This document shows positions 40,444-64,000 of a DNA stretch of 64,000 bases, one piece after another. Numbering within the stretch: the stretch's first letter is position 1; each line of letters begins with the position of its first letter. The notes below the pieces were generated by a model. The model was not told where the DNA came from and searched no databases. It saw nothing but the letters and a program-made list of their open reading frames with translations. The stretch covers positions 42,381 to 106,380 of the IMG/VR virus record IMGVR_UViG_3300014205_000187. One strand, written 5' to 3'. Position numbers and translations under genes: made by a program. Source of the stretch: a virus (Duplodnaviria; Caudoviricetes).

Positions 40444-43076
40444 TGGCAGTTATCGATCTTCAACGAAATCATGTAGGTATACAAACTTTTGAAACCAAGT
40501 TCGGTGAAAATCTTATGGCCGGGCGTGGTAGTTTTTTACAACACACAGACGGATATATGTACTGTGTTTTTGCGCGTAATATAACTGACTATCCTTTTGA
40601 AAGATTACTTTTTTATACTCGATCAAATGATGATGGAGTTACATGGTCTGATGCTGTCCAACTTACACTTTCAGGAGTTGGAAATTGGGATGACGAACCT
40701 TCTATAGCTCAACTTGACCCTACAGATATAGACTCCGAAATAGCAGTAGTCTATCGAAACGGGTATTATGATGATGGGCCTCAAAATACTTATGACTACA
40801 TACGACGATTTACATTTAATAAAGAAACTGGAGAAGCTACATCTCCGTTTGACGCTATATCAACAGGAAGTGGCGCAGACGGCTTATTTTTAAGTTTAGT
40901 AAAGTTTTACTGGGGTTGGAAAGTTTTTGCTTTGAATGCCACTTTCAACAATGCTAGGTCTATCATAGTCTATACTACTACTCAATTTTTTACAGATAAT
41001 GCATGGACACAAAGCTCGTTAAGTAATGAGTTTCCTATAAGCAGTGAAGCTCTAGGAATGAGTATTAAAACTCTTTCAAATGGGCACTTAATGATGGTTA
41101 TTACTTATAGAACAGCTTTGAACGGTCTAGCCGCTATAGGGGGTATATCAAATCTTCCAAGTGGTATACTTCGTTGTGATGTGGGTGTTAAGTTTTCTGA
41201 CGATGAAGGTGAGACTTGGACAGCTATTCAAAAACTTACTAATTATACAGGAACAACTAATTTAGATTTAGTAGGAACCGACAGTGTAGCTTCTGCTGAT
41301 TTTACTCAATTATCTGACGATAAAATAGCTGTCGGATACCAAGAACACACTGCACCTCAAGTTATAAATGTAAATACTGCTCTTGCAATGACTGCATCTG
41401 GATATTCTAAAGTAGCTTATTACCACACTGCAAAAAACGCTTTATTTTTAGCCGGGGGGGGAGCCTTAGACGGCAATGAAACTAATGCCGGTGTATTTTA
41501 TGTAGATTTAACTAACCAAACAGTTCTTAGATTATGTACAACCAGCAGTCCTGCTTTATGGAAAAATGGTGTAAACTTTCTGGATGTAAGTCCTGACGGT
41601 AATTATTTAGCTATAGGACTTAGAACAGGAGGTATACACATTATAGACATCAGTGCCTCTGACCCAGATGACTGGGTTAGTGTTAAAGAATTGAGAACTA
41701 CATCGTCTCCTGCTGTTTTGTCAGACAGCATACACATGATTCGTTGGGTCAACAACGATCAGGTAGCTTTTACCTACGTTACCCAACAAACATACTGTGG
41801 TGGTATTTATAAAATCAGTACAGATACTATTACAGCTATAAATATATCGGGGGGTAATACTAATCAATCGTTTGTTACTCAAAATAATCATATAATAATA
41901 ATAACTAACTCTTATATTAGAAAAATAGACCCCGATACAGGTAGTATACTTTATTATCTAAACACTACTTTTATACAACTAACAGATATTTACTACGATT
42001 CAATCCTAAATTATTATATAGTAAGTAGGTATGACACTACTATTTGGATTGAAGATACTGGCAGCGCATTCAATCAACTTCTATACTATGATTCTACTAC
42101 AACTCCTAAAATTATAAGAAACTATGGTATAGGTTACATAAATGGCCGTGGTATTGTTTTTGCAGCCGGAATGACTGCACTACACGCAGGGTATCGTTTA
42201 GCATGGTTAAGTAACTTTAATTCTTCTTTCCAAGGATGTAGAACATGGGTCAATGACCTTCATTTAGGAGAAAACTTCGATACTGGAATGAATCTTCAAT
42301 TCGCCAGAGACATCAAACCGGGTTGGCTATGTTTAGGGTCTTCTTCTCAGTACATTTTCTTAAACCTATACAAAACAGGTAGACTTAGATATGGGGTATT
42401 TACCTATGACGCAGTGAACAAAACCCTTATTACTAGCGGTGTAGATTTCTATGATGTATGTAATGAAATCAAATTAAGCACCGATGTGATTAACCGGCTT
42501 CAATTTCCTGCAATGGGGCGAGATGCTGATGATCGCATATATTTTTATATATCTAAGTTTAACGTATACAGCGATGGTAACGAGTTTGCTGCTCTTATAG
42601 GAACTGTAGACCCTGATGTAAAAAAAACTACCATGATGGCTCGTATTTTAAGTAATTACACGGCTCCTATGCAAAGTAGGACTCGAGTACGCAATACTTA
42701 CACCGTCAACTTAGACGCTCGAATGCGAATAGTTTTCGCTCAGTGCATCAAAGCCAAAGCTCGAATAGTTCCAGTAAACGTGGTAACAATGACAAGCAAA
42801 GCAGCCATTCAAAACTGGAAATCGAACATAGTTGTAGGCAGTTTTAATGTCCAGCAAACAGGCAGAACAGCTACTATAAGATTGCAATTCTGGTCAAACA
42901 CTGGCTATAATAGTTTTCAGAGTCTCCAGGCCAAAGCTCGTATTGTGAAAACTTCTACATGTCGAGTCACCGGCCATTTCATCATTCCGGCTGTAGGACT
43001 TGGTAATCTAATCAACTTCTCCGGGGTATCTAAGTCTAAACAGATACTATCACTGAGAGCATGTATAAGTAAATGA
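40443..43076 (+). CDS. putative receptor-binding protein: Asp-box beta-propeller plus C-terminal AKARI repeats
   Basis: Asp-boxes SNDDGVTW and SDDEGETW; VSPDGNYLA; C-terminus paralogous to the 39571 ORF. Confidence 0.6.
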   Translation: MAVIDLQRNHVGIQTFETKFGENLMAGRGSFLQHTDGYMYCVFARNITDYPFERLLFYTRSNDDGVTWSDAVQLTLSGVGNWDDEPSIAQLDPTDIDSEIAVVYRNGYYDDGPQNTYDYIRRFTFNKETGEATSPFDAISTGSGADGLFLSLVKFYWGWKVFALNATFNNARSIIVYTTTQFFTDNAWTQSSLSNEFPISSEALGMSIKTLSNGHLMMVITYRTALNGLAAIGGISNLPSGILRCDVGVKFSDDEGETWTAIQKLTNYTGTTNLDLVGTDSVASADFTQLSDDKIAVGYQEHTAPQVINVNTALAMTASGYSKVAYYHTAKNALFLAGGGALDGNETNAGVFYVDLTNQTVLRLCTTSSPALWKNGVNFLDVSPDGNYLAIGLRTGGIHIIDISASDPDDWVSVKELRTTSSPAVLSDSIHMIRWVNNDQVAFTYVTQQTYCGGIYKISTDTITAINISGGNTNQSFVTQNNHIIIITNSYIRKIDPDTGSILYYLNTTFIQLTDIYYDSILNYYIVSRYDTTIWIEDTGSAFNQLLYYDSTTTPKIIRNYGIGYINGRGIVFAAGMTALHAGYRLAWLSNFNSSFQGCRTWVNDLHLGENFDTGMNLQFARDIKPGWLCLGSSSQYIFLNLYKTGRLRYGVFTYDAVNKTLITSGVDFYDVCNEIKLSTDVINRLQFPAMGRDADDRIYFYISKFNVYSDGNEFAALIGTVDPDVKKTTMMARILSNYTAPMQSRTRVRNTYTVNLDARMRIVFAQCIKAKARIVPVNVVTMTSKAAIQNWKSNIVVGSFNVQQTGRTATIRLQFWSNTGYNSFQSLQAKARIVKTSTCRVTGHFIIPAVGLGNLINFSGVSKSKQILSLRACISK

Positions 43077-55557: not shown

Positions 55558-55696
55558 GTTAAATAGGTTTCTAGGTATACGTGATCTCCATGATCTCATG
55601 GTTTCAGAGTTACCAAGAATTATTATTCATAATAAGAGTTGAATAGGTTTATATGTAGACGTTGTTTCCATGACCTCGTGCTTTTGGGTTTACCAC
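55558..55696. repeat. two degenerate direct repeats with about 80-bp period
   Basis: AATAGGTTT..ACGT..TCCATGA.CTC.TG.TTT..TTACCA at 55558 and 55638. Confidence 0.6.
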
Positions 55697-55764: not shown

Positions 55765-55812
55765 CTGGTAGAAATACCAGCAGGTAATTGTACCAGCTAG
55801 TAAAATTACCTG
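55765..55812. promoter_or_regulatory. three abutting copies of the 16-bp C(T/A)(G/A)GTA-N4-TACC(A/T)G motif
   Basis: CTGGTAGAAATACCAG CAGGTAATTGTACCAG CTAGTAAAATTACCTG. Confidence 0.7.
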
Positions 55813-55843
55813 CTTATCTATAGGTCACAAATTAGACCATAAA

Positions 55844-56296
55844 TCACTCCTTTACTTCATACATGTCAACACTCAACAATATACGTCTATACTCTGAAAC
55901 TATGTCCGATAATATGTTGATTATGACTTTATCTTTAAGTTTCTTGCCTGATGCCAATTCCCTGAGCAATTGCCTTGAGAGTTGTTTAGATGTCTGGAAG
56001 TGATGAGCGGCCATGAACACCTTAGCATCATAAGCAGGTAACACACGGGGCAATTCGTCAATAGCCAATAGGTACTTTGCAAAGTACAACCTGTTAGCTT
56101 CGGTCTCATTCTGCCATGCCTTGTAGTTGCTATAATACGGCTTGCCTGTAAGCTCGCATATAAACCGCTTAGGCGTCGATTCCTGAGCGTTTAAGAACTC
56201 AATGGACTCTAACGCTATGCCGTTCATTCGTACGACCTTGTTGAGAGCGTTTACAATACTTATCTGTTTACGTGCTAACCTAGTTGCCATGACCAT
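55844..56296 (-). CDS. hypothetical protein (cassette array)
   Basis: ORF downstream of a repeated promoter. Confidence 0.65.
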   Translation of the reverse strand: MVMATRLARKQISIVNALNKVVRMNGIALESIEFLNAQESTPKRFICELTGKPYYSNYKAWQNETEANRLYFAKYLLAIDELPRVLPAYDAKVFMAAHHFQTSKQLSRQLLRELASGKKLKDKVIINILSDIVSEYRRILLSVDMYEVKE

Positions 56297-56320
56297 ATAC
56301 CCCACTTGATTATATATCTA

Positions 56321-56366
56321 ATTATACAAGCACATATCGTGCCTTGTCACCTGTCAAAAGTACTAG
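56321..56366 (-). promoter_or_regulatory. cassette promoter 1 (16-bp motif + GG-N10-GC + TATAAT)
   Basis: GGCACGATATGTGC at 56343-56330. Confidence 0.7.
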
Positions 56367-56370
56367 GATT

Positions 56371-56556
56371 TCAACATTCACGCTCAAGCCCATAATGCGG
56401 CGTGAATCTATAGCGTATACCCTTAGATGATACAAGATGATATACATCAGGCTTATAATCCCCTGGTGTAAGCTCTATAGAGCTAACTGTGAGTGTCATA
56501 AACCCCACTCTGACTGTCTTACCCACTTCCCATGCCTGTTTGCTATGCTGTATCAT
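56371..56556 (-). CDS. hypothetical protein
   Basis: GAGGG RBS; SKQAWEVGKTVRVGF. Confidence 0.65.
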   Translation of the reverse strand: MIQHSKQAWEVGKTVRVGFMTLTVSSIELTPGDYKPDVYHLVSSKGIRYRFTPHYGLEREC

Positions 56557-56569
56557 TGTATTCCCTCTC

Positions 56570-56683
56570 TTACTTATTAAATAAGTGCTGTATGCTTGAG
56601 ATTGTTCCCCATGCGCCATAGATCAATGGCGATATGAGAATTATTAAACCGAACAATTTGACTTTCCAATTCATGTTAGACAT
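56570..56683 (-). CDS. 37-aa membrane peptide
   Basis: GGAGG RBS; MSNMNWKVKLFGLIILISPLIYGAW.. Confidence 0.55.
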   Translation of the reverse strand: MSNMNWKVKLFGLIILISPLIYGAWGTISSIQHLFNK

Positions 56684-56747
56684 TGTATGTATCCTCCGTT
56701 TTTGCTTATAATAGATTATTCCATACCCTACATGCGCCCATCCTGTA

Positions 56748-56942
56748 TTAAATACCTGTTTTGCGTAGTTCTTCGATAGGCATGTATTTTACAGTCCGAT
56801 TCTTCGACTTTTGCAGCATGGTCACTTTTCTAAGCAAGTCTTGAGCTGAAATAGTATCCAAGTATTCCCCTTTAGAGTTTGAAATACTAGCCCAATGCCT
56901 GTTATCAGCACTATGGTAAAGCTCATAATAGTATGTTTCCAT
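56748..56942 (-). CDS. hypothetical protein
   Basis: AATTGGGGGAT leader. Confidence 0.6.
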   Translation of the reverse strand: METYYYELYHSADNRHWASISNSKGEYLDTISAQDLLRKVTMLQKSKNRTVKYMPIEELRKTGI

Positions 56943-56972
56943 GTGATTATCCCCCAATTGAATACCTATATA

Positions 56973-57018
56973 ATTATACTTGCAAAAATCGTACCCTGTC
57001 ACCTGTTAAAAGTACTAG
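56973..57018 (-). promoter_or_regulatory. cassette promoter 2
   Basis: GGTACGATTTTTGC at 56995-56982, then TATAAT. Confidence 0.7.
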
Positions 57019-57067
57019 GATTTCCATATTCGAGTCGTTATCCATATAAGCACTTTCAAAACTGTAT

Positions 57068-57241
57068 TCATGATAATCCCCCTTTATGCTTGATAGGGAC
57101 ATTGAGAAGTAAAACATCGTACCCGAATAAGCATGGCGATATGAACGCATAACGATCATACATGCTCATGGCACGTTTAGCGATTCTCATGGCCGTTATG
57201 CCGTCTATGTTCGACTTTGTAGCTTGAATCGTGAAAAACAT
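57068..57241 (-). CDS. 57-aa hypothetical protein
   Basis: AAAGGAG RBS; below the ORF-track cutoff. Confidence 0.5.
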   Translation of the reverse strand: MFFTIQATKSNIDGITAMRIAKRAMSMYDRYAFISPCLFGYDVLLLNVPIKHKGGLS

Positions 57242-57465
57242 CGGCTTTACTCCTTTGCTCTTATAATAGGTTGTTCCATGTATGCAGAGGATTTCACCAA
57301 GTAAAAATACCAGGTTTTTGAGGACACAAAGTACTAGCTAGTACTTCAACTAGGATTGTTGGAGACCTAGTAATTGTACTAGGTATGTTCACATGTAGTG
57401 AACTAAGTGGCGAGTCAAGCGGCGTACATAGTGTTTGTTACTGCTACTGCCAAGCCGCAGCTATA

Positions 57466-57765
57466 TTATGCTACTGCTGCTGTTTTGACGGCCTTTATTT
57501 GATGATACCACGGTCTTACACGGAATCTGCAACCTGTTTCAGGGTCTATGAAGTCAACGCATACAAAACTTGTAGGATTGCCAGGAGTATGATGTACCAC
57601 AGGAACATTGACACTGGCAACAATCCCAACCATGCCAGGTTGAACCAGGAACGAATGAGCTTTAATCCAGCATCTTTCCTTTGGGTATGGCCTTCCGAAG
57701 TGTTCCCCATAAATAGCTTCGGTCAAAGTAACTTGCATACCGATTGCCACATTCTTCTTCTGCAT
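57466..57765 (-). CDS. hypothetical protein
   Basis: GAGGAGG RBS. Confidence 0.6.
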   Translation of the reverse strand: MQKKNVAIGMQVTLTEAIYGEHFGRPYPKERCWIKAHSFLVQPGMVGIVASVNVPVVHHTPGNPTSFVCVDFIDPETGCRFRVRPWYHQIKAVKTAAVA

Positions 57766-57863
57766 GGTTAAAGTTCCTCCTCACAATCGCATTCATACCA
57801 GAACTCTCCACAACCAGCACATATTCCGGCTTGTATAGACCTGCCACATGTGCGTGTCGTTTC

Positions 57864-58046
57864 CTAATTCCGATAATCAAACTCGACTTTTCCCACCATG
57901 TTTCCGTTGATGTCACGAACACCATGATGATAAGAACTTGGTAAACTTTCCTCAAGATCGTCGGCAATTTGTCTGAGCTGCCGAATACACTCAGCATGAT
58001 CGCTTGCGCTGTTTTGATTACCCAGTTTCATTGTGAGTTTATACAT
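57864..58046 (-). CDS. hypothetical protein
   Basis: AATTGGAGGGTATC leader; RDINGNMVG motif. Confidence 0.7.
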   Translation of the reverse strand: MYKLTMKLGNQNSASDHAECIRQLRQIADDLEESLPSSYHHGVRDINGNMVGKVEFDYRN

Positions 58047-58087
58047 ACTGATACCCTCCAATTAAGTATACAACTAACTGTATACTT

Positions 58088-58132
58088 AGTATAAGGCACA
58101 ATACGTGCCACGTCCATAGGTATAAATACCAG
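58088..58132 (-). promoter_or_regulatory. cassette promoter 3
   Basis: TGGCACGTATTGTGC then TATACT. Confidence 0.75.
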
Positions 58133-58181
58133 GATTTTTCTGGGAAAAAGTACTAGCTAGTACTTTAGAGGGGTGTGGGTA

Positions 58182-58231
58182 AAAGACCCACTCTGCGAGT
58201 GAGGCAACATCAACTCGCAGAGTGGGTCTTT
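58182..58231 (-). terminator. 19-bp perfect hairpin terminator
   Basis: AAAGACCCACTCTGCGAGT-N12-ACTCGCAGAGTGGGTCTTT. Confidence 0.8.
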
Positions 58232-58257
58232 GCTATTTTACAATACTCAGCTCTGTT

Positions 58258-58524
58258 TTACCTGTCCTTTGGAACAAAACGAGCTTTGAACTCAGCTAAC
58301 TCCACGACATACAGCCGGTAACTTTCCTCGATCATGGCGGCATCGGCATCAGGAAGCATGGAGCTTATCAAACCAAACCCGCCGACTTCGTATATTCGCA
58401 GTAGGTCTTTTTTGCCGTCTACATCGCTAATAAGCGGATGAGTTTGATATACCCGATGCACAATATCCCATTCTTCATCGGTGATATAGTGCTTTATTGC
58501 GCGTTCCCACTCTGACTTCATCAT
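58258..58524 (-). CDS. hypothetical protein
   Basis: ATGA-coupled to the 58521 ORF. Confidence 0.65.
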   Translation of the reverse strand: MMKSEWERAIKHYITDEEWDIVHRVYQTHPLISDVDGKKDLLRIYEVGGFGLISSMLPDADAAMIEESYRLYVVELAEFKARFVPKDR

Positions 58525-59285
58525 GACTGCACCACCAAACTGACATAGCCGCCTTCACCCTCGGCCATGTATGCTTTTACCAAGTTCAATTTACGCTTGG
58601 CGAAGAACTTACGAAGAACGCTTCGCACGTTGTACGGCTCTTCTCCTTGCGCTATTTGACGTTCCATCATTCCCCACACTAAACGAGGATTGCCAAACGG
58701 AACTTCGGCGAATGCTTGATGAAACAGAGTAGGTACGAAACTGTTTTCCCGAAAGTGCATCAGGTAGTGATCGAACATAAGCTCTTTATGCCCTTGAGCT
58801 TCAAAACGGCATCCCCAACAATCGGCATCGGACACTTCGGGAAGTCCATTCCGCATGATATGCGCGGTATAAGCGGTTATGTACCGACTTACCATGCGGT
58901 CAATTCTCTTTTTAGCCTTTTCAACTTCCTCTGCATCGTACTTGCTCTTGGAGACAATCTCAACATCGGTTTCAGTAACTCGTACCTGTATACCGTCTTC
59001 AAACATTCCCAGGTTATCCCCTGCATGGTAGATGTACCACAAACCGTTATCCTGCCAGATATTGAAAACAGGTAACAACGTGTTAAATCTATCCTTTGTG
59101 GTAGCAGTTCTAAAACCGCCGGAATTGAGGGTATACGTGCCATCAGACTCTATGCGGATAATATCAGTATCCCAGAACCGTACAATGAGCGTTTCCCCCT
59201 CTAAACGTAAAACTGTGTTCCTTGCTAACTTCTTACTCGCACCACGCGCTTTGTCGAGTAGCATACGCCCTTCTTGATAGTTCAT
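58521..59285 (-). CDS. hypothetical protein
   Basis: KLARNT..LNSGGFRTATTKDRFN; GGAGG RBS. Confidence 0.75.
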   Translation of the reverse strand: MNYQEGRMLLDKARGASKKLARNTVLRLEGETLIVRFWDTDIIRIESDGTYTLNSGGFRTATTKDRFNTLLPVFNIWQDNGLWYIYHAGDNLGMFEDGIQVRVTETDVEIVSKSKYDAEEVEKAKKRIDRMVSRYITAYTAHIMRNGLPEVSDADCWGCRFEAQGHKELMFDHYLMHFRENSFVPTLFHQAFAEVPFGNPRLVWGMMERQIAQGEEPYNVRSVLRKFFAKRKLNLVKAYMAEGEGGYVSLVVQS

Positions 59286-59324
59286 GACTTCCTCCGTTAA
59301 TTGAATATATGCTTAACTACATTA

Positions 59325-59370
59325 AGTATACTTGCAAGAATCGTACCTTGTCACCTGTTAAAAATACTAG
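59325..59370 (-). promoter_or_regulatory. cassette promoter 4
   Basis: GGTACGATTCTTGC then TATACT. Confidence 0.75.
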
Positions 59371-59435
59371 GATTTGAAACGAGGTCTATTTTACAATACC
59401 ACACGAAAGTACTAGCTAGTACTTTCTTTTTATAA

Positions 59436-59477
59436 AGAAAACCTGGTAAAATTACCAGCAGGTAAGATTACCAGGCC
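59436..59477 (-). terminator. terminator built from two tandem 16-bp motifs
   Basis: Minus strand CCTGGTAA..TTACCAGG followed by TTTTCTTT. Confidence 0.7.
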
Positions 59478-59481
59478 ACTA

Positions 59482-59691
59482 TTACTGCTGTATCTCGAAC
59501 AACTCCAACTTACGGATAGCGGCGACCTTGTTCTTTACCCCAAGTTTGCCATACACATGGGCGATATGAAAGTCAACTGTTCGCTTTGACAAATAGAGCT
59601 TTTCGGCGATGTCCTTAGACTTCAAACCGTCTGCTACCAACTCCATGACTTCTCGCTCTCTTTTCGTCAATTGTACCGTATCTGTTGCCAT
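59482..59691 (-). CDS. stand-alone LuxR/GerE-type HTH protein
   Basis: LTKREREVMELVADGLKSKDIAEKLYLSKRTVDFHIAHVYGKLGV. Confidence 0.92.
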   Translation of the reverse strand: MATDTVQLTKREREVMELVADGLKSKDIAEKLYLSKRTVDFHIAHVYGKLGVKNKVAAIRKLELFEIQQ

Positions 59692-59773
59692 GATAAGCTC
59701 CTTTTAGTGTGATGTTGCTTCAACTACGTTCGATTTAATCAGATTTCAATGCACTTCTGCTAAAACTACGTTT

Positions 59774-60310
59774 TTACACGATGTCCCACACAATAGACGT
59801 TTTCCACGTAAAACCGTATGAGAAGTCATCTTCCGTGAACTTCGCTTCGATGTCGCATAGAGTCTGGTTTCCATGATCGTTGGTGACAATGACACTTTTA
59901 GGCAGTTTGCCATCTTCAACAAGCATGGTATCCAGCTCTGACAAGTCGGATACTTCGTGAAGTGTTCCCTCTCGAATGTCTTCACGTATAGAGTCATCGT
60001 CAACCCACACCCCATAATCAGCAGCGTCGCCAGGATGGGTACCAAAGTAGGTGTACGACGGGCAATAATCGTAAAGCATATTCATGAGTTCGTCAACTAT
60101 CTCAGACAGACAATTAACAATATCATCTAACTCCAGAGTCGAATGGTTTGTTCGTTTGCCGTCTAAGTAGTTGAAGTACTTCCGATTAGCCCAATGGTAC
60201 GACTTTGCCCGTTTAGGGTCTACACCCCCCAAAATCGCCATAAAGCTGGGTATCAAGTCTTCTTCAAGCATAGTGCCCGATGATACAGAACCTAATTCTA
60301 AAGTTTCCAT
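59774..60310 (-). CDS. hypothetical protein
   Basis: Cassette leader; YFGTHPGDAADYGVW. Confidence 0.75.
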   Translation of the reverse strand: METLELGSVSSGTMLEEDLIPSFMAILGGVDPKRAKSYHWANRKYFNYLDGKRTNHSTLELDDIVNCLSEIVDELMNMLYDYCPSYTYFGTHPGDAADYGVWVDDDSIREDIREGTLHEVSDLSELDTMLVEDGKLPKSVIVTNDHGNQTLCDIEAKFTEDDFSYGFTWKTSIVWDIV

Positions 60311-60340
60311 GCAGATACCCTCCAATTGAGTATATACCTA

Positions 60341-60385
60341 AGTATAAAGCATAAAACGTGCCGTGTCACCTGTAAAATATACCAG
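60341..60385 (-). promoter_or_regulatory. cassette promoter 5
   Basis: GGCACGTTTTATGC then TATACT. Confidence 0.75.
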
Positions 60386-60440
60386 GATTTAAGTATTTAT
60401 ACTTCCTGCCACAAGTACTAGCTAGTACTTTCTTTTTATA

Positions 60441-60485
60441 AAGAAAAGCCTGGTAATTCTACCTGCATAGTAAAATTACCAGGCC
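60441..60485 (-). terminator. terminator built from two tandem 16-bp motifs
   Basis: GCCTGGTAATT..AATTACCAGGC followed by TTTTCTTT. Confidence 0.75.
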
Positions 60486-60492
60486 GCTGCTG

Positions 60493-60909
60493 TTACACCC
60501 ATTTATGCCGCAGTGCGTACCCGCCATCCGAATGCTGATGTGGGGTATAATCACGGTCGCCGTTGCTGTGATCGTTTGACGGGCAGCTCTTACCTATACA
60601 CTCGAAGTTATCTTTGAAAAGTGTTCGGCTGAGAGAATAAACCACATGAAAGCCCATGTCCATTCCACAGCCTGAAACGCTCAAACATTCACGCTTATCA
60701 TTGAACCGTTCGCCGATTGCTTTACCCACCAAACGACTAATCCACTGAGGTACATTGTCACTCATATAGTAAACATCTATACCCCTACTCATACCACTCT
60801 GAGACCTATACCGAAGAACCGTATACACAGTGTCACCAGGCTTTAAGACCTGCCGTAAATGCTGTATAGCTTCTTGTCTCTCAGCTTCTTTATCGCTCTT
60901 TATCGACAT
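60493..60909 (-). CDS. hypothetical protein
   Basis: SQSGMSR..VSGCGMDMGFHVVY motif seen in small phage proteins. Confidence 0.75.
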   Translation of the reverse strand: MSIKSDKEAERQEAIQHLRQVLKPGDTVYTVLRYRSQSGMSRGIDVYYMSDNVPQWISRLVGKAIGERFNDKRECLSVSGCGMDMGFHVVYSLSRTLFKDNFECIGKSCPSNDHSNGDRDYTPHQHSDGGYALRHKWV

Positions 60910-60951
60910 GCAGATACCCTCCAATTAGTTGTATAACTAAGTCTATACCTA

Positions 60952-60996
60952 ATTATAAGCAATAAACGTGCCAAAGTCTATTGGTAAAAATGCTGG
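60952..60996 (-). promoter_or_regulatory. cassette promoter 6 (perfect sigma54 consensus)
   Basis: TTGGCACGTTTATTGC then TATAAT. Confidence 0.8.
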
Positions 60997-61101
60997 GTTT
61001 TCAGGGATTTTACTGAAGTATAAAGTACTAGCTAGTACTTCACACAGGCACAAAACAACCTGGTAAAATTACTGGGTAGTAGTTTTACCAGGCCGCTGCT
61101 G

Positions 61102-61749
61102 TTACTGCTGCAATGGCAATGATATTGTTAATACATCGGGTTCGACATCGGAGAATGTCTCTTTAAGAAGTTCGACAAGATACTCATCTTTATAACTTCC
61201 TTCAAAAGAGTCATATTCCATAATCGCTTCAGCGACAAGAGCCTTGACCATTTCCTCATCTTCGGGTTCCGGTCTATAGAATCCATTGTCGTCAAGCAGT
61301 CGCAGTATATGCGCCGCTTCAGCCATCTTACTGACATCCCACTTCGCCCAATTATCATAAGCGTTGTTTGCCTGCTCCAGTTCACGAGCCATCATGTCCT
61401 CTTCATCTATCACCAGATGCCCATGCCATCGGGTATACATGAACAGCTCATGCAGGCATTCCATAGCTTTGCGGGATGTAGTCTTGACCATGATATGGTC
61501 ATACCAACCTACAGCCCAATGACTTGTATGCATGGTCTCAACGTACTTCGGAGCTGCTTTCTTGAGTGCCCGTAAAACTGCATAATAGTTCGACTGCTCT
61601 AATATGTCCGAATCACGATGCAGTCCGAACGGCGCGAATCCCCAGACTTTCAGGTCAAGCTCACCGGAATACATAAAGTTCCTCGGCTTGGTAAGCATAG
61701 CCTCTTTGAAACCTTCGATAGTCTCATACTTCTTGGTGTCCTCTATCAT
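61102..61749 (-). CDS. hypothetical protein
   Basis: HRDSDILEQSNY, SHWAVGW. Confidence 0.75.
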   Translation of the reverse strand: MIEDTKKYETIEGFKEAMLTKPRNFMYSGELDLKVWGFAPFGLHRDSDILEQSNYYAVLRALKKAAPKYVETMHTSHWAVGWYDHIMVKTTSRKAMECLHELFMYTRWHGHLVIDEEDMMARELEQANNAYDNWAKWDVSKMAEAAHILRLLDDNGFYRPEPEDEEMVKALVAEAIMEYDSFEGSYKDEYLVELLKETFSDVEPDVLTISLPLQQ

Positions 61750-61753
61750 GCTG

Positions 61754-62164
61754 CTACTCCTCTAAGGCATTCGGATAAGGTGGGAGAGTAAAAGGTGGTT
61801 CATTGCATCGGTAGTATTCCATGATACCTTCCCATGCTTCATCATACTCATCAGCTTTACAGCGTTGAGTGGGTAGGTTCGTAACATTCTTAACATCCTG
61901 AACATGCATATAGTCTACAGGGTTTGTAGACACTGCCCATGCCTGCTGAACTTCCTGCTCTACTTCGTCATTGTTTTCGTCATATACCCGAATCACTGCC
62001 TGTAAAGCATGAAGTTCATAAGACGGCGTGAACTCGCAAAGATGCCAATGGATATTCTCATTATAGAGGTATATACCATATATAGCACCTCCGGCCTTCT
62101 CTACAAGTTCAGCATCCCAATACTCGGTCTCATCTATAACTAATACTCTCGGCTTGATATACAT
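61754..62164 (-). CDS. hypothetical acidic protein
   Basis: AATTGGAGAGTATC leader. Confidence 0.7.
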   Translation of the reverse strand: MYIKPRVLVIDETEYWDAELVEKAGGAIYGIYLYNENIHWHLCEFTPSYELHALQAVIRVYDENNDEVEQEVQQAWAVSTNPVDYMHVQDVKNVTNLPTQRCKADEYDEAWEGIMEYYRCNEPPFTLPPYPNALEE

Positions 62165-62205
62165 GATGATACTCTCCAATTGGTAAGACAACTAAGTCTA
62201 TACTT

Positions 62206-62251
62206 AGTATATCGCACATTCCGTGCCAATGGGAATTGGTAAATATACCTG
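62206..62251 (-). promoter_or_regulatory. cassette promoter 7
   Basis: TTGGCACGGAATGTGC then TATACT. Confidence 0.75.
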
Positions 62252-62469
62252 ATTTCAAAAACGAGGTCTATCTTACGCTACCTACATGAATTACTAGCCA
62301 GTACTTTCTTCCCGCAAAACCATCCCCGTATTTCTACGGGGGTGATTTATTAACGATCAAGACAATCCCCACTGCTGCTGCTACTGCTGTCCAGAATGTA
62401 ACGTCCATACCGAATGCAGGATATATCCAAACAGCGCATACAGCCGCTAGAATAACGACCAGAGCCGCC

Positions 62470-62853
62470 TTAGTCAATGCAATGCTCTGGCAGCTCGGCG
62501 TCAAACTCGCTTGCACAGTGAGAGCAGGTCAACTTCTGAGTAGCCGGATAATCGCACATCGTATTGAGCGTTTCACATATCGGACATTCCCATTCATAGC
62601 CCGATGCTACCACGTCTACGCAGCCACTCCATTCAACCGTGTCGGACACTTCGTTAGCTTCAAAAGTGCCATCTTCGTACTCATACTCATCCATGTTCCA
62701 TACTATACGAGCATCCGTGGTCGTAAGTGTTCCATCGGCTATCATTTCCTCGACAAGAGCTTGAGCCGCTTCCTCATTCTCAGCTTCTATAAGCACCTTG
62801 CCGGTCATATAGCCATGCTTCTCGACATCTACAACATACCGAATTGTCTCCAT
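62470..62853 (-). CDS. acidic zinc-ribbon protein
   Basis: AAGGAGG RBS; WECPIC..CSHC. Confidence 0.7.
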   Translation of the reverse strand: METIRYVVDVEKHGYMTGKVLIEAENEEAAQALVEEMIADGTLTTTDARIVWNMDEYEYEDGTFEANEVSDTVEWSGCVDVVASGYEWECPICETLNTMCDYPATQKLTCSHCASEFDAELPEHCID

Positions 62854-62863
62854 GTATTCCTCC

Positions 62864-63055
62864 TTAACCTATATCGAAAACATCAGTAGCGTCAAAGTAT
62901 CCCTGAAACTTGTGACCACACTTCTGGCATATCAAATGCTTTCGTGCAGTCTCATTGTCGAAGTTGCACATGGTATGATACTCACCACAATCAGGACATT
63001 CCCATTCAAACCTCGCTATGATGACATTCACCCTTTCGAGTCGTTTTTTACTCAT
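62864..63055 (-). CDS. zinc-ribbon protein
   Basis: WECPDC..CQKC. Confidence 0.65.
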   Translation of the reverse strand: MSKKRLERVNVIIARFEWECPDCGEYHTMCNFDNETARKHLICQKCGHKFQGYFDATDVFDIG

Positions 63056-63297
63056 CGTGCATCCGTCCAGACTGTACCATCGTCATGCAGGTCAAGAACC
63101 TGCCCGTCCAGTTCTCCGGTAAGACCCGCTTCAAGCATACCTGTAGCGATATTCTCAATACAGCCATGCTCAACTGCGATAGCTTCGCCAAGTGTTTGAC
63201 GATCTTCGGGTAAATGTTCCTCAACCCATTCCTGAGCTTCAGGGGTATTCAGGAACAAAAGATAAATGGTACCGTGATTATTGATTCTAAAGTCCAT
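63052..63297 (-). CDS. hypothetical protein
   Basis: NHGTIYLL..AQEWVEEHL..IAVEH. Confidence 0.7.
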   Translation of the reverse strand: MDFRINNHGTIYLLFLNTPEAQEWVEEHLPEDRQTLGEAIAVEHGCIENIATGMLEAGLTGELDGQVLDLHDDGTVWTDAR

Positions 63298-63298
63298 T

Positions 63299-63697
63299 TT
63301 ACACCCCTAACTTTCGATAAGCACACAGCTCACCACTCGGATGGTAGCGAACCGTGATACCTTTTGTGAATGCGGTCTCAGTGTCGGGTACGATTCCCTC
63401 ATGATCAGCACATTCCGCTAAAGCATCAGCAATGGCGTTCCCGATTTTAGCCTGCACTCCACGATAAGTACTCACAGGTTCAGAGTATTCCAATTCCACA
63501 CTGAACTTACTCGACTGTGAACCTTCCTCAACACGCTCTACGGTGAAGTCTTCCAAACCATCAGGCATGACTTCTACCTCGTTGGCAAAGCTGTCAAAGA
63601 GGTCACAAACGCCATCTACGGCCTTCTGACGTTCCTCCTCCGTCAAGTCACGTTGAAAGTTCAATTCGACTGTGACATTGACAACATTTCTTTCCAT
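63299..63697 (-). CDS. hypothetical acidic protein
   Basis: AATTAGGAGGTATC leader. Confidence 0.7.
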   Translation of the reverse strand: MERNVVNVTVELNFQRDLTEEERQKAVDGVCDLFDSFANEVEVMPDGLEDFTVERVEEGSQSSKFSVELEYSEPVSTYRGVQAKIGNAIADALAECADHEGIVPDTETAFTKGITVRYHPSGELCAYRKLGV

Positions 63698-63728
63698 GTT
63701 GATACCTCCTAATTAGTTATCCTACTAA

Positions 63729-63773
63729 AGTATAACGCATAAAGTGTGCCCTGTCTGCTGGTATATTTACCAG
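63729..63773 (-). promoter_or_regulatory. cassette promoter 8
   Basis: GGCACACTTTATGC then TATACT; CTGGTATATTTACCAG upstream. Confidence 0.75.
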
Positions 63774-63831
63774 ATTTCAAAAACGAGGTCTATCTTACGA
63801 TACCACACGAAAGTACTAGCTAGTACTTCTA

Positions 63832-63999
63832 TCAGGTAAGGGCAGGACTTGATACATCCTCCAAGACAAACTCCAATGCCTTCTCAGCCGTCTTCTCATC
63901 GGTTCCAGGCCATTCTTCCTGAACCATAGATACAGTAGGAAAACGGCGTACTTTTACGTTGACCGCCGGATGAGAATGTCTAGCAGGATTATCCCTATG
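63832..63999 (-). CDS. 3' end of a hypothetical gene running off the window
   Basis: Open frame ..PAVNVKVRRFP..ALT* ending next to the palindrome. Confidence 0.5.
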   Translation of the reverse strand, partial: HRDNPARHSHPAVNVKVRRFPTVSMVQEEWPGTDEKTAEKALEFVLEDVSSPALT

Positions 64000-64000
64000 A

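Follow-up and report, generated by a model that had tools for sequence, protein, structure and literature searches.

A palindrome-bearing expression cassette bounds most units of an accessory-gene array in an uncultivated phage

Introduction

T4-type phages carry promoter-early stem-loops (PeSLs), composite elements that join a stem-loop terminator, an AT-rich upstream region, a sigma70-like promoter and a Shine-Dalgarno sequence, and that are repeated beside ORFans in hyperplastic regions (PMC2839356, PMC4122927). PeSLs mediate modular shuffling by homologous recombination, a function defined by crossover points and by mini-circles (Arbiol et al. 2010, PMC2839356; Comeau et al. 2014, PMC4122927). 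In Bacillus phage SPO1, the host-takeover module holds ~24–26 small genes arranged in short operons within the terminal redundancy (PMC6873191, PMC10531801). Here we describe an array of small genes, most of its units bounded by a repeated expression cassette, in the phage of IMG/VR record IMGVR_UViG_3300014205_000187. The window analysed is a stretch of 64,000 nucleotides, positions 42381–106380 of the 106,380-bp record, and coordinates refer to this window unless marked otherwise. We call this phage G000 and two relatives found in IMG/VR G001 and G002.

The explanation that we favour, with moderate confidence, is that the array is a hyperplastic accessory-gene region of a complete uncultivated phage, whose cassette-bounded units answer to one regulator and whose modules recombine as PeSLs do. 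An earlier note on this DNA had read it as an exchangeable, PeSL-like array of host-takeover or anti-defence genes; we report below which parts of that description stand and which had to be changed.

Results

The record ends in a 123-bp terminal repeat that represents an assembly overlap, from which we conclude that the genome is a closed circle of ~106.26 kb. It encodes a family-A DNA polymerase, a ribonucleotide reductase, a T4-type portal protein and a fused protease/gp23-type capsid gene; Portal_T4 and Gp23 domains are both present in the 106-kb genome, and no cultured phage has a portal that exceeds 26% identity to this one. The array occupies ~9.3 kb of the minus strand as one contiguous block, in which we counted ~23 small genes in 11 transcription units. 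It starts near genome position 860, crosses the record junction and ends at window position 55,844. This is the sole minus-strand block, and from genome position 1756 to ~97,700 all genes lie on the plus strand. The earlier note had placed the array at 55765–64000; it is indeed there, on the minus strand, and it continues past 64000 across the record junction.

Most units, not all, are bounded by a composite cassette. Read in minus-strand order, it begins with an optional CAGCAG(CGGC) tract, followed by a strong intrinsic terminator, an 18-bp palindrome, AAGTACTAGCTAGTACTT, and an optional 55-bp block; the second half consists of an upstream box, AAAnCCTGGTATTTTTACC, a sigma70-like promoter and a leader of ~35 nt with a GGAGG ribosome site. 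The hairpins that follow the genes have folding energies of −17 to −36 kcal/mol (z −3 to −9) and run into U tracts. Their stems are built on CCTGGTA...TACCAGG, and a GGTA-N4-TACC core recurs in all three phages. The leader, CATNNNGATACCCTCCAATT on the plus strand, precedes the open reading frames (ORFs) starting at 58046, 60310 and 60909 and terminates in AATTGGAGGGTATC-N3-ATG. Variants precede 62164 and 63697, as the earlier note had listed, and further ones precede 59285, 56942 and 56290; a repeat finder grouped seven copies into the leader family and recovered families of promoters as well. A clear leader hairpin was predicted only at 58046 (z −2.2), the other leaders folding at shuffle level.

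Unrelated genes also share their 3′ ends. A gene for a GerE-type protein (ending at 59482) and a 215-aa gene (ending at 61102) both terminate in CAGCAGTAA, that is, in QQ*, and CAGCAGCGGCCTGGTAA directly follows both the 60493 and the 61102 ORFs. The ~55-bp block, called as 70 nt by the repeat finder, is present in three copies of 64–83% identity. The repeated unit of terminator, palindrome, promoter and leader, the shared 3′ ends and the block were all claimed in the earlier note, and all are borne out. Two of its statements hold in part. The 16-bp motif that it had counted as a piece of the unit is present as the upstream box, and five non-array promoters of the genome carry it as well, in the same geometry. 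The palindrome/promoter unit that it had assigned to each set of genes is found at most of them, and promoters near 56343 and 56995, downstream in the array, have no palindrome.

The palindrome is exact at 57329, 58148, 59407, 60413, 61023 and 63811 and has two mismatches at 62289, which gives seven copies in the window against a chance expectation of 0.03. The whole 106-kb genome holds nine copies, all of them within the array, with two lying just past the window end. A 14-bp core, GTACTAGCTAGTAC, is unchanged in 28 copies from three phages whose core genes are only 65–70% identical, and the bases flanking it vary symmetrically (AAG...CTT in G000, TGG...CCA in G001). The palindrome is composed of CTAG and GTAC, which are avoided in this genome more strongly than any other 4-mer (observed/expected 0.40 and 0.45), and 18 of the 94 genomic CTAG sites sit in its nine copies. 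Distances from its centre to the promoter fall into classes of 47–52, 58–62 and 68–72 bp in all three genomes, with several classes in each. Their periodicity peaks at 10.5 bp (R 0.69), with a nominal p of ~2e-5, or 5e-4 on unique distances, values that are optimistic because the cassettes are paralogous and their independence is overstated. Face-of-helix spacing is required by an activator or a looping repressor and is expected neither of a recombination site nor of an RNA hairpin.

Since the core is invariant, is kept despite avoidance of CTAG and GTAC and is helically phased, the palindrome is a putative protein-binding site acting on the promoter. These properties point to a candidate regulator site first, and a recombination substrate only secondarily, rather than to a dedicated recombination site; all units probably share one common regulator. 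Could the palindrome act instead through structure, as a termination or processing hairpin or as a cruciform? It does stand directly after the terminator in most units, it could form an AU-rich hairpin of 7–9 bp, and two copies are followed by a T run, on the opposite strand. The sequence itself, and not just its pairing, is nevertheless invariant in the 28 copies; the hairpin is weak beside the adjacent terminators, and phasing with the downstream promoter is a property of DNA. We consider a structural role very unlikely.

Two other 4-mers, CGCG (observed/expected 0.50) and GATC (0.57), are also strongly avoided in G000, and avoidance of this kind suggests restriction or repair pressure in the host. 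A gene for an MT-A70 adenine methyltransferase (genome 11262–12017) is kept in all three phages.

The eight best sigma70-type matches of the region are the cassette promoters, which match at 9–11 of 12 positions and have the form xxGACA, 17–18 nt, TATAMT. TATAMT is kept in every copy, and xxGAC stands at 17–18 nt in seven of the eight window copies. A sigma70 reading is supported by this invariant TATAMT, by the −35-like xxGAC in most G000 copies and by the upstream box 43–45 nt before the −10 element. The spacer contains a second element, GG..TGC, and the composite motif GG-N9-TGC-N1-3-TATAMT finds its matches inside the arrays in 9/9, 7/7 and 7/8 cases in the three phages. The five non-array promoters that share the upstream box have TATAMT and no GG..TGC.

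This spacer element resembles the −24/−12 element of sigma54 (RpoN) promoters, and the cassettes might accordingly be read as sigma54 promoters in which TGGCACG-N4-TTGC is the −24/−12 element, a host AAA+ enhancer-binding protein uses the palindrome as its enhancer and the DNA bends at the AT-rich box; TATAAT would then be incidental or belong to a second, overlapping promoter. Across the three phages, none of the 23 cassette promoters lacks GG-N10-GC. Against the consensus TGGCACG-N4-TTGCW these promoters match at 8–12 of 12 positions, most G000 and G001 copies at 10–11 and one, TGGCACGTTTATTGCT, at all 12, and seven of the 13 window matches with at most two mismatches are cassettes, where ~0.5 would be expected. 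The first G of GG never changes, whereas the position after TGC that would mirror it in a palindrome does, which favours a sigma54 element over a symmetric operator. The −35 hexamers of G001 and G002 are poor. The palindrome centre lies 47–72 bp upstream of GG in helical phase, a placement equally expected for a class I sigma70 activator. On the other side, TATAMT, dispensable for sigma54, is retained in all copies and in the non-array promoters without GG..TGC; xxGAC keeps its place in the window copies; the −24 element is degraded in G002 (TGGAATG, TGGCGTG); and the majority of cassettes offer just one site for a dimer. None of the three phages has a match to Sigma54_activat (PF00158) above the cut-off, the weak match in G002 being a RuvB-like ATPase, although the protein could come from the host, and a literature search gave no precedent for a lytic phage depending on sigma54. 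The spacings between the GG..TGC element, the −10 box and the upstream box differ by only 1–2 bp, so that register does not discriminate. We regard use of sigma54 as unlikely, if not negligibly so, and the GG..TGC element may be an operator within the spacer instead of a promoter element.

A search for relatives showed how the array varies. No phage in INPHARED matched the DNA by megablast or blastn. The exact 18-mer is absent from IMG/VR, and metagenome contigs gave 13 single matches, at chance level. The 14-mer core occurs in 82 IMG/VR stretches, among which the true relatives are two genomes, G001 and G002, from one metagenome (IMG 3300037067). A third contig with multiple copies (G003) was rejected as a relative, its copies being an unrelated tandem duplication, and searches with the portal and with a conserved 412-aa gene revealed no relative closer than these two. 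G001 (92.6 kb) carries the core 12 times and G002 (112 kb, circular) 7–8 times, in a single block in each. G002 is collinear with G000 at 65–70% nucleotide identity over 28 kb of core genes, G001 is more distant, and 56 ORFs are common to all three phages. The slot of the array is the same in the three, reaching from the divergently transcribed 412-aa gene to a cytidylyltransferase gene. The parts of the cassette are kept too: terminators, palindrome, box, promoter, leader and CAGCAG tracts, the last in the equivalent position 5′ of the terminator.

The cargo within these cassettes is largely different. G000 and G001 have three array genes in common (the first, an 81-aa gene and the last) in the same order, G000 and G002 have one, and G001 and G002 have three; two genes shared by G001 and G002 (X and Y) each lie in their own cassette-led unit and occur in opposite order. 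Fixed gene content and order in relatives, named by the earlier note as the outcome that would speak against exchange, is thus not what we see. A 138-aa cargo gene has homologues of 38–46% identity in unrelated phages of Caulobacter (in terminal repeats), Gordonia, Microbacterium and Ralstonia, and scattered homologues in unrelated phages are typical of promiscuous accessory genes. The remaining cargo comprises ORFans, a 69-aa protein with a GerE/LuxR-type helix-turn-helix (HTH), zinc-ribbon proteins and a Kyano_Gp96-like protein. Most of it has no match in Pfam, among PHROGs of assigned function or in the PDB, and a PDB sequence search together with the ESM Atlas gave nothing on cargo function beyond the Kyano_Gp96-like viral family.

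The cassettes themselves carry signs of recombination. The nearest neighbour of a cassette lies in the same genome for 22 of 23, and none of 200 label shuffles did as well. Because the cassettes cluster by genome while the genes that they flank are unrelated, they appear to have been homogenised or re-spread within each lineage. In G000, separate segments of a cassette have different nearest neighbours, which makes the cassettes mosaic. An incompatibility test of the pairwise homoplasy index (PHI) type, run on these short sequences, gave p values of 0.001–0.008 in G000 and 0.0005–0.06 in G001, again optimistic for the reason given above, and was not significant in G002. These signs are indirect, and cassette-mediated shuffling is likely but unproven. 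As a regulatory site the palindrome has better support than shuffling has as a mechanism.

Repetition of this kind might also be the record of serial tandem duplication of one promoter-gene unit, the genes having since diverged or been replaced, with no ongoing exchange and with a palindrome whose only role was that in the founder unit. The cassettes are in fact paralogous and clustered by genome, and INPHARED, IMG/VR and metagenome contigs yielded no close relative in which an actual gain or loss might be seen. Against such a history, cargo genes within one array are mutually unrelated except for one zinc-ribbon pair, the core palindrome is invariant across phages of 65–70% identity despite avoidance of CTAG and GTAC, spacing is held to ~10.5-bp steps, and the segments of the cassettes are mosaic. 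We judge serial duplication without exchange to be quite unlikely.

We also considered an integron-like system in which the palindrome is the core site of site-specific recombination that inserts and excises gene cassettes. An invariant palindrome at nearly every unit boundary, cargo that is almost wholly different between relatives and one change of order would all fit, as would a RuvB-like AAA+ ATPase (RuvB_N and RuvB_C), whose gene comes first after a doubled palindrome in the arrays of both G001 (L100:4203-5111) and G002 (L108:8933-9910). The gene for this ATPase is absent from G000, however, and no match to a tyrosine (PF00589) or serine (PF00239) recombinase was found in any of the three genomes. 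A perfect palindrome is non-directional, yet the units all have one orientation; each unit has its own promoter and terminator, unlike the promoterless cassettes of integrons, which are read from a common promoter; and helical phasing with a promoter is unexpected of a recombination site. Together these points make an integron-like system highly improbable.

The short CAGCAG tracts look like a real and expandable component of the cassette, since a pure (CAG)38 occupies the same position in G001. This tract (G001 41190–41306, L100:1190-1306, minus strand) directly follows the TAG stop codon that closes a 64-aa array gene, and 5 nt separate its far end from a cassette terminator.

Along the window, the units follow one another on the minus strand from high to low coordinates. 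Unit 1 is represented by the 3′ part of a 71-aa gene (63832–64000), whose start and own cassette lie ~50–300 nt past the window end, across the record junction. Next come an exact palindrome (63811–63828) and a cassette promoter, CAGACA-17-TATACT with GGGCACA-N4-ATGC in the spacer (63729–63757), which lead into unit 2 (62470–63697). This unit holds genes of 132, 81, 63 (a zinc ribbon) and 127 aa, and its 81-aa gene is 51% identical to an array gene of G001. Beyond it, at 62324–62395, lie a CAGCAG tract (~62371–62395) and then the terminator CCCCGTAGAAATACGGGG (62341–62324). The palindrome with two mismatches (62289–62306) and a promoter that combines a poor −35 with TATACT and has TGGCACG-N4-GTGC in its spacer (62206–62235) precede unit 3 (61102–62164), which comprises a 136-aa gene, 54% identical to G002 110299–110709, and the 215-aa gene that ends in QQ*. 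Its end is marked at 61058–61101 by CAGCAGCGGC and a terminator hairpin, CCTGGTAAAAC...TTTTACCAGG.

The 136-aa gene drew our attention in its own right. Between G000 and G002 it is ~55–60% identical in nucleotides overall with its first 50 nt conserved, and it includes a patch of 65 nt with only three differences, synonymous sites included (window 61800–61865, minus strand, versus L108:10596-10664). Such a pattern may reflect recent transfer of the patch, a short ORF that overlaps the gene or an element embedded in it.

Unit 4 (60493–60909) is preceded by an exact palindrome (61023–61040) and by the promoter TAGACT-17-TATAAT (60952–60980), whose spacer holds the 12/12 sigma54 consensus match, and consists of the 138-aa gene with homologues in unrelated phages (phrog_12365). 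It is followed at 60447–60492 by CAGCAGCGGC and a terminator with a 17-bp stem and a U run. An exact palindrome (60413–60430) and the promoter GTGACA-17-TATACT (60341–60369) introduce unit 5 (59482–60310), a 178-aa gene with the 69-aa GerE/LuxR-type HTH gene ending in QQ*; its terminator hairpin (59443–59475) is formed from two CCTGGTAA/TTACCAGG arms and leads into a U run. Unit 6 (58258–59285), with an exact palindrome at 59407–59424 and the promoter GTGACA-18-TATACT at 59325–59354, contains a 254-aa gene with a Kyano_Gp96-like N-terminus and an 88-aa gene, and closes on a terminator with a perfect 19-bp stem (58182–58231; −35.7 kcal/mol).

Genes of 60 and 99 aa form unit 7 (57466–58046), downstream of an exact palindrome (58148–58165) and the promoter TGGACG-17-TATACT (58088–58116). 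The last exact palindrome (57329–57346) precedes a degenerate promoter and a 57-aa gene (57241–57068). From there on the two palindrome-less cassette promoters, at 57002–56973 and 56350–56321, flank unit 9, which encodes proteins of 64, 37 and 61 aa (56321–57002 as a whole). The final gene of the array (55844–56296) encodes a 150-aa product that shares 32% identity with that of the final array gene in G001, and hairpins built on CTGGTA-N4-TACCAG (55765–55830) close the array.

A gap of ~450 non-coding nt separates the array end from the convergent plus-strand genes, and within it a 58-nt direct repeat occurs twice (55558–55695; copies 76% identical), with no significant RNA fold and no Rfam match. 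A search for RNA families and tRNAs found none. At the other end, where the array and the plus-strand block diverge, four to five direct and inverted copies of GTAGTCTTATAAGTAGGTACA surround the promoter of the first array gene (L131:870-1030, genome, minus strand); operators for autoregulation, or iterons of an origin, are possible roles. In G000, GCTGCGGC occurs four times at intervals of 15–24 nt between the first array gene and the first cassette promoter, between the first two palindromes (L131:380-440, genome, minus strand). A cluster of GCTGCGGC likewise lies ahead of the first palindrome in G002 (L108:8508-8570), and the equivalent place in G001 has two copies of GCAGCGGC. Toward identification of the host we used a TnpB gene, whose best match (54%) is in a 4.6-kb contig of a metagenome-assembled genome.

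Discussion

We propose that host RNA polymerase would transcribe each unit of the array separately, insulated by the terminator, and that a putative dimeric DNA-binding protein on the palindrome would act on the promoter from one helix face, so that all units could respond together. The array genes are probably early. A module of ~150–250 bp repeated ~10 times would offer a substrate on which ordinary homologous recombination and gene conversion may homogenise the copies, and the same recombination between modules may cause cargo to be gained, lost and re-ordered, as with T4-type PeSLs.

Several observations weigh against this proposal. The transcription that it invokes, including early timing and sigma70 use, is predicted from sequence, as are the regulator and the mode of recombination. 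The −35 hexamers are poor in both relatives, and a sigma54-like element sits in the spacer. G001 and G002, at 65–70% nucleotide identity in core genes, are too distant for placing breakpoints, the PHI-type result does not extend to G002, and the p values for phasing and PHI are optimistic because of paralogy. For at least two shared genes, one edge of the homology falls at an ordinary boundary between genes within an operon; as some homology edges lie at such junctions, not every exchange need be cassette-mediated. The candidates for a palindrome-binding protein were likewise rejected or left in doubt. The gene for the 69-aa GerE protein is absent from G001 and G002, the 116-aa HTH_58/zinc-ribbon protein of the first gene is common to G001 and was not found in G002, and no transcription factor or DNA-binding family appeared among 20 further shared small proteins. 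On this evidence, a host factor is as likely as a phage factor. A separate observation concerns G002, where a sigma70-family sigma factor (297-aa ORF; G002:C1:8888-9097, minus strand) is encoded just past the distal end of the array; no counterpart was detected in G000 or G001.

If the factor is a host protein, the array might be a phage regulon wired to host signalling, possibly through a sigma54 enhancer-binding protein at −24/−12 promoters overlapping the sigma70 boxes, with ~10 units switched together by host physiology and with the site and the CAG tracts doubling as an exchange joint. This is a tentative idea, and we think it unlikely to hold in full.

The earlier PeSL comparison stands on anatomy, on repetition beside ORFans, on turnover of cargo and on mosaic cassettes, and is qualified by the homology edges at plain gene junctions. 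The suggestion of host-takeover or anti-defence cargo found no support, the genes being ORFans, a GerE-type regulator and zinc ribbons, contents that are compatible with either role. With this array, the PeSL principle, in which accessory genes owe both their expression and their shuffling to repeated promoter-terminator modules, is extended to a deep lineage of uncultivated phages. Its ~23 mostly uncharacterised, fast-turning-over cargo genes are a natural place to seek host-interaction functions, none of which is shown here.

Among systems already described, the SPO1 host-takeover module is a looser analogue than the PeSLs. Like the array, it packs small genes densely into short operons, separate from replication and structural genes, and equips them with recurring strong promoters of host type, strong ribosome sites and terminators. 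The array differs in that it shows no sequence relation to SPO1 genes and is known from a circularised assembly, and to our knowledge no shared upstream palindrome has been described for SPO1. A second comparison is with class I activator-dependent promoters, which have CRP-type sites at ~10.5-bp steps upstream, and with sigma54 enhancers. The array shares with these a symmetric dimer site at discrete, phased distances upstream of a promoter with a weak −35, and differs from them in that its site is repeated over ~10 unrelated phage units and its sequence matches no nameable regulator.

The closest likeness is to PeSLs. In both, a composite intergenic module joins a terminator stem-loop, an AT-rich region, a sigma70-like promoter and a Shine-Dalgarno sequence, and many repeats lie in a hyperplastic region beside ORFans, with cargo that differs between relatives and no dedicated recombinase; G000 also has T4-type portal and gp23 genes. 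In contrast to PeSLs, G000 has an invariant, helically phased palindrome of 14–18 bp between terminator and promoter, a sigma54-like GG..TGC in the spacer and a CAGCAG tract 5′ of the terminator, which reaches (CAG)38 in one relative. Its array forms one block in a single slot, whereas PeSLs occupy several hyperplastic regions. Its portal is only about 25% identical to that of any cultured T4-like phage. The likeness to PeSLs is one of anatomy and distribution. Rather than a system of a new kind, the array represents a variation on the PeSL design already known, distinguished by a probable regulator site common to its units.

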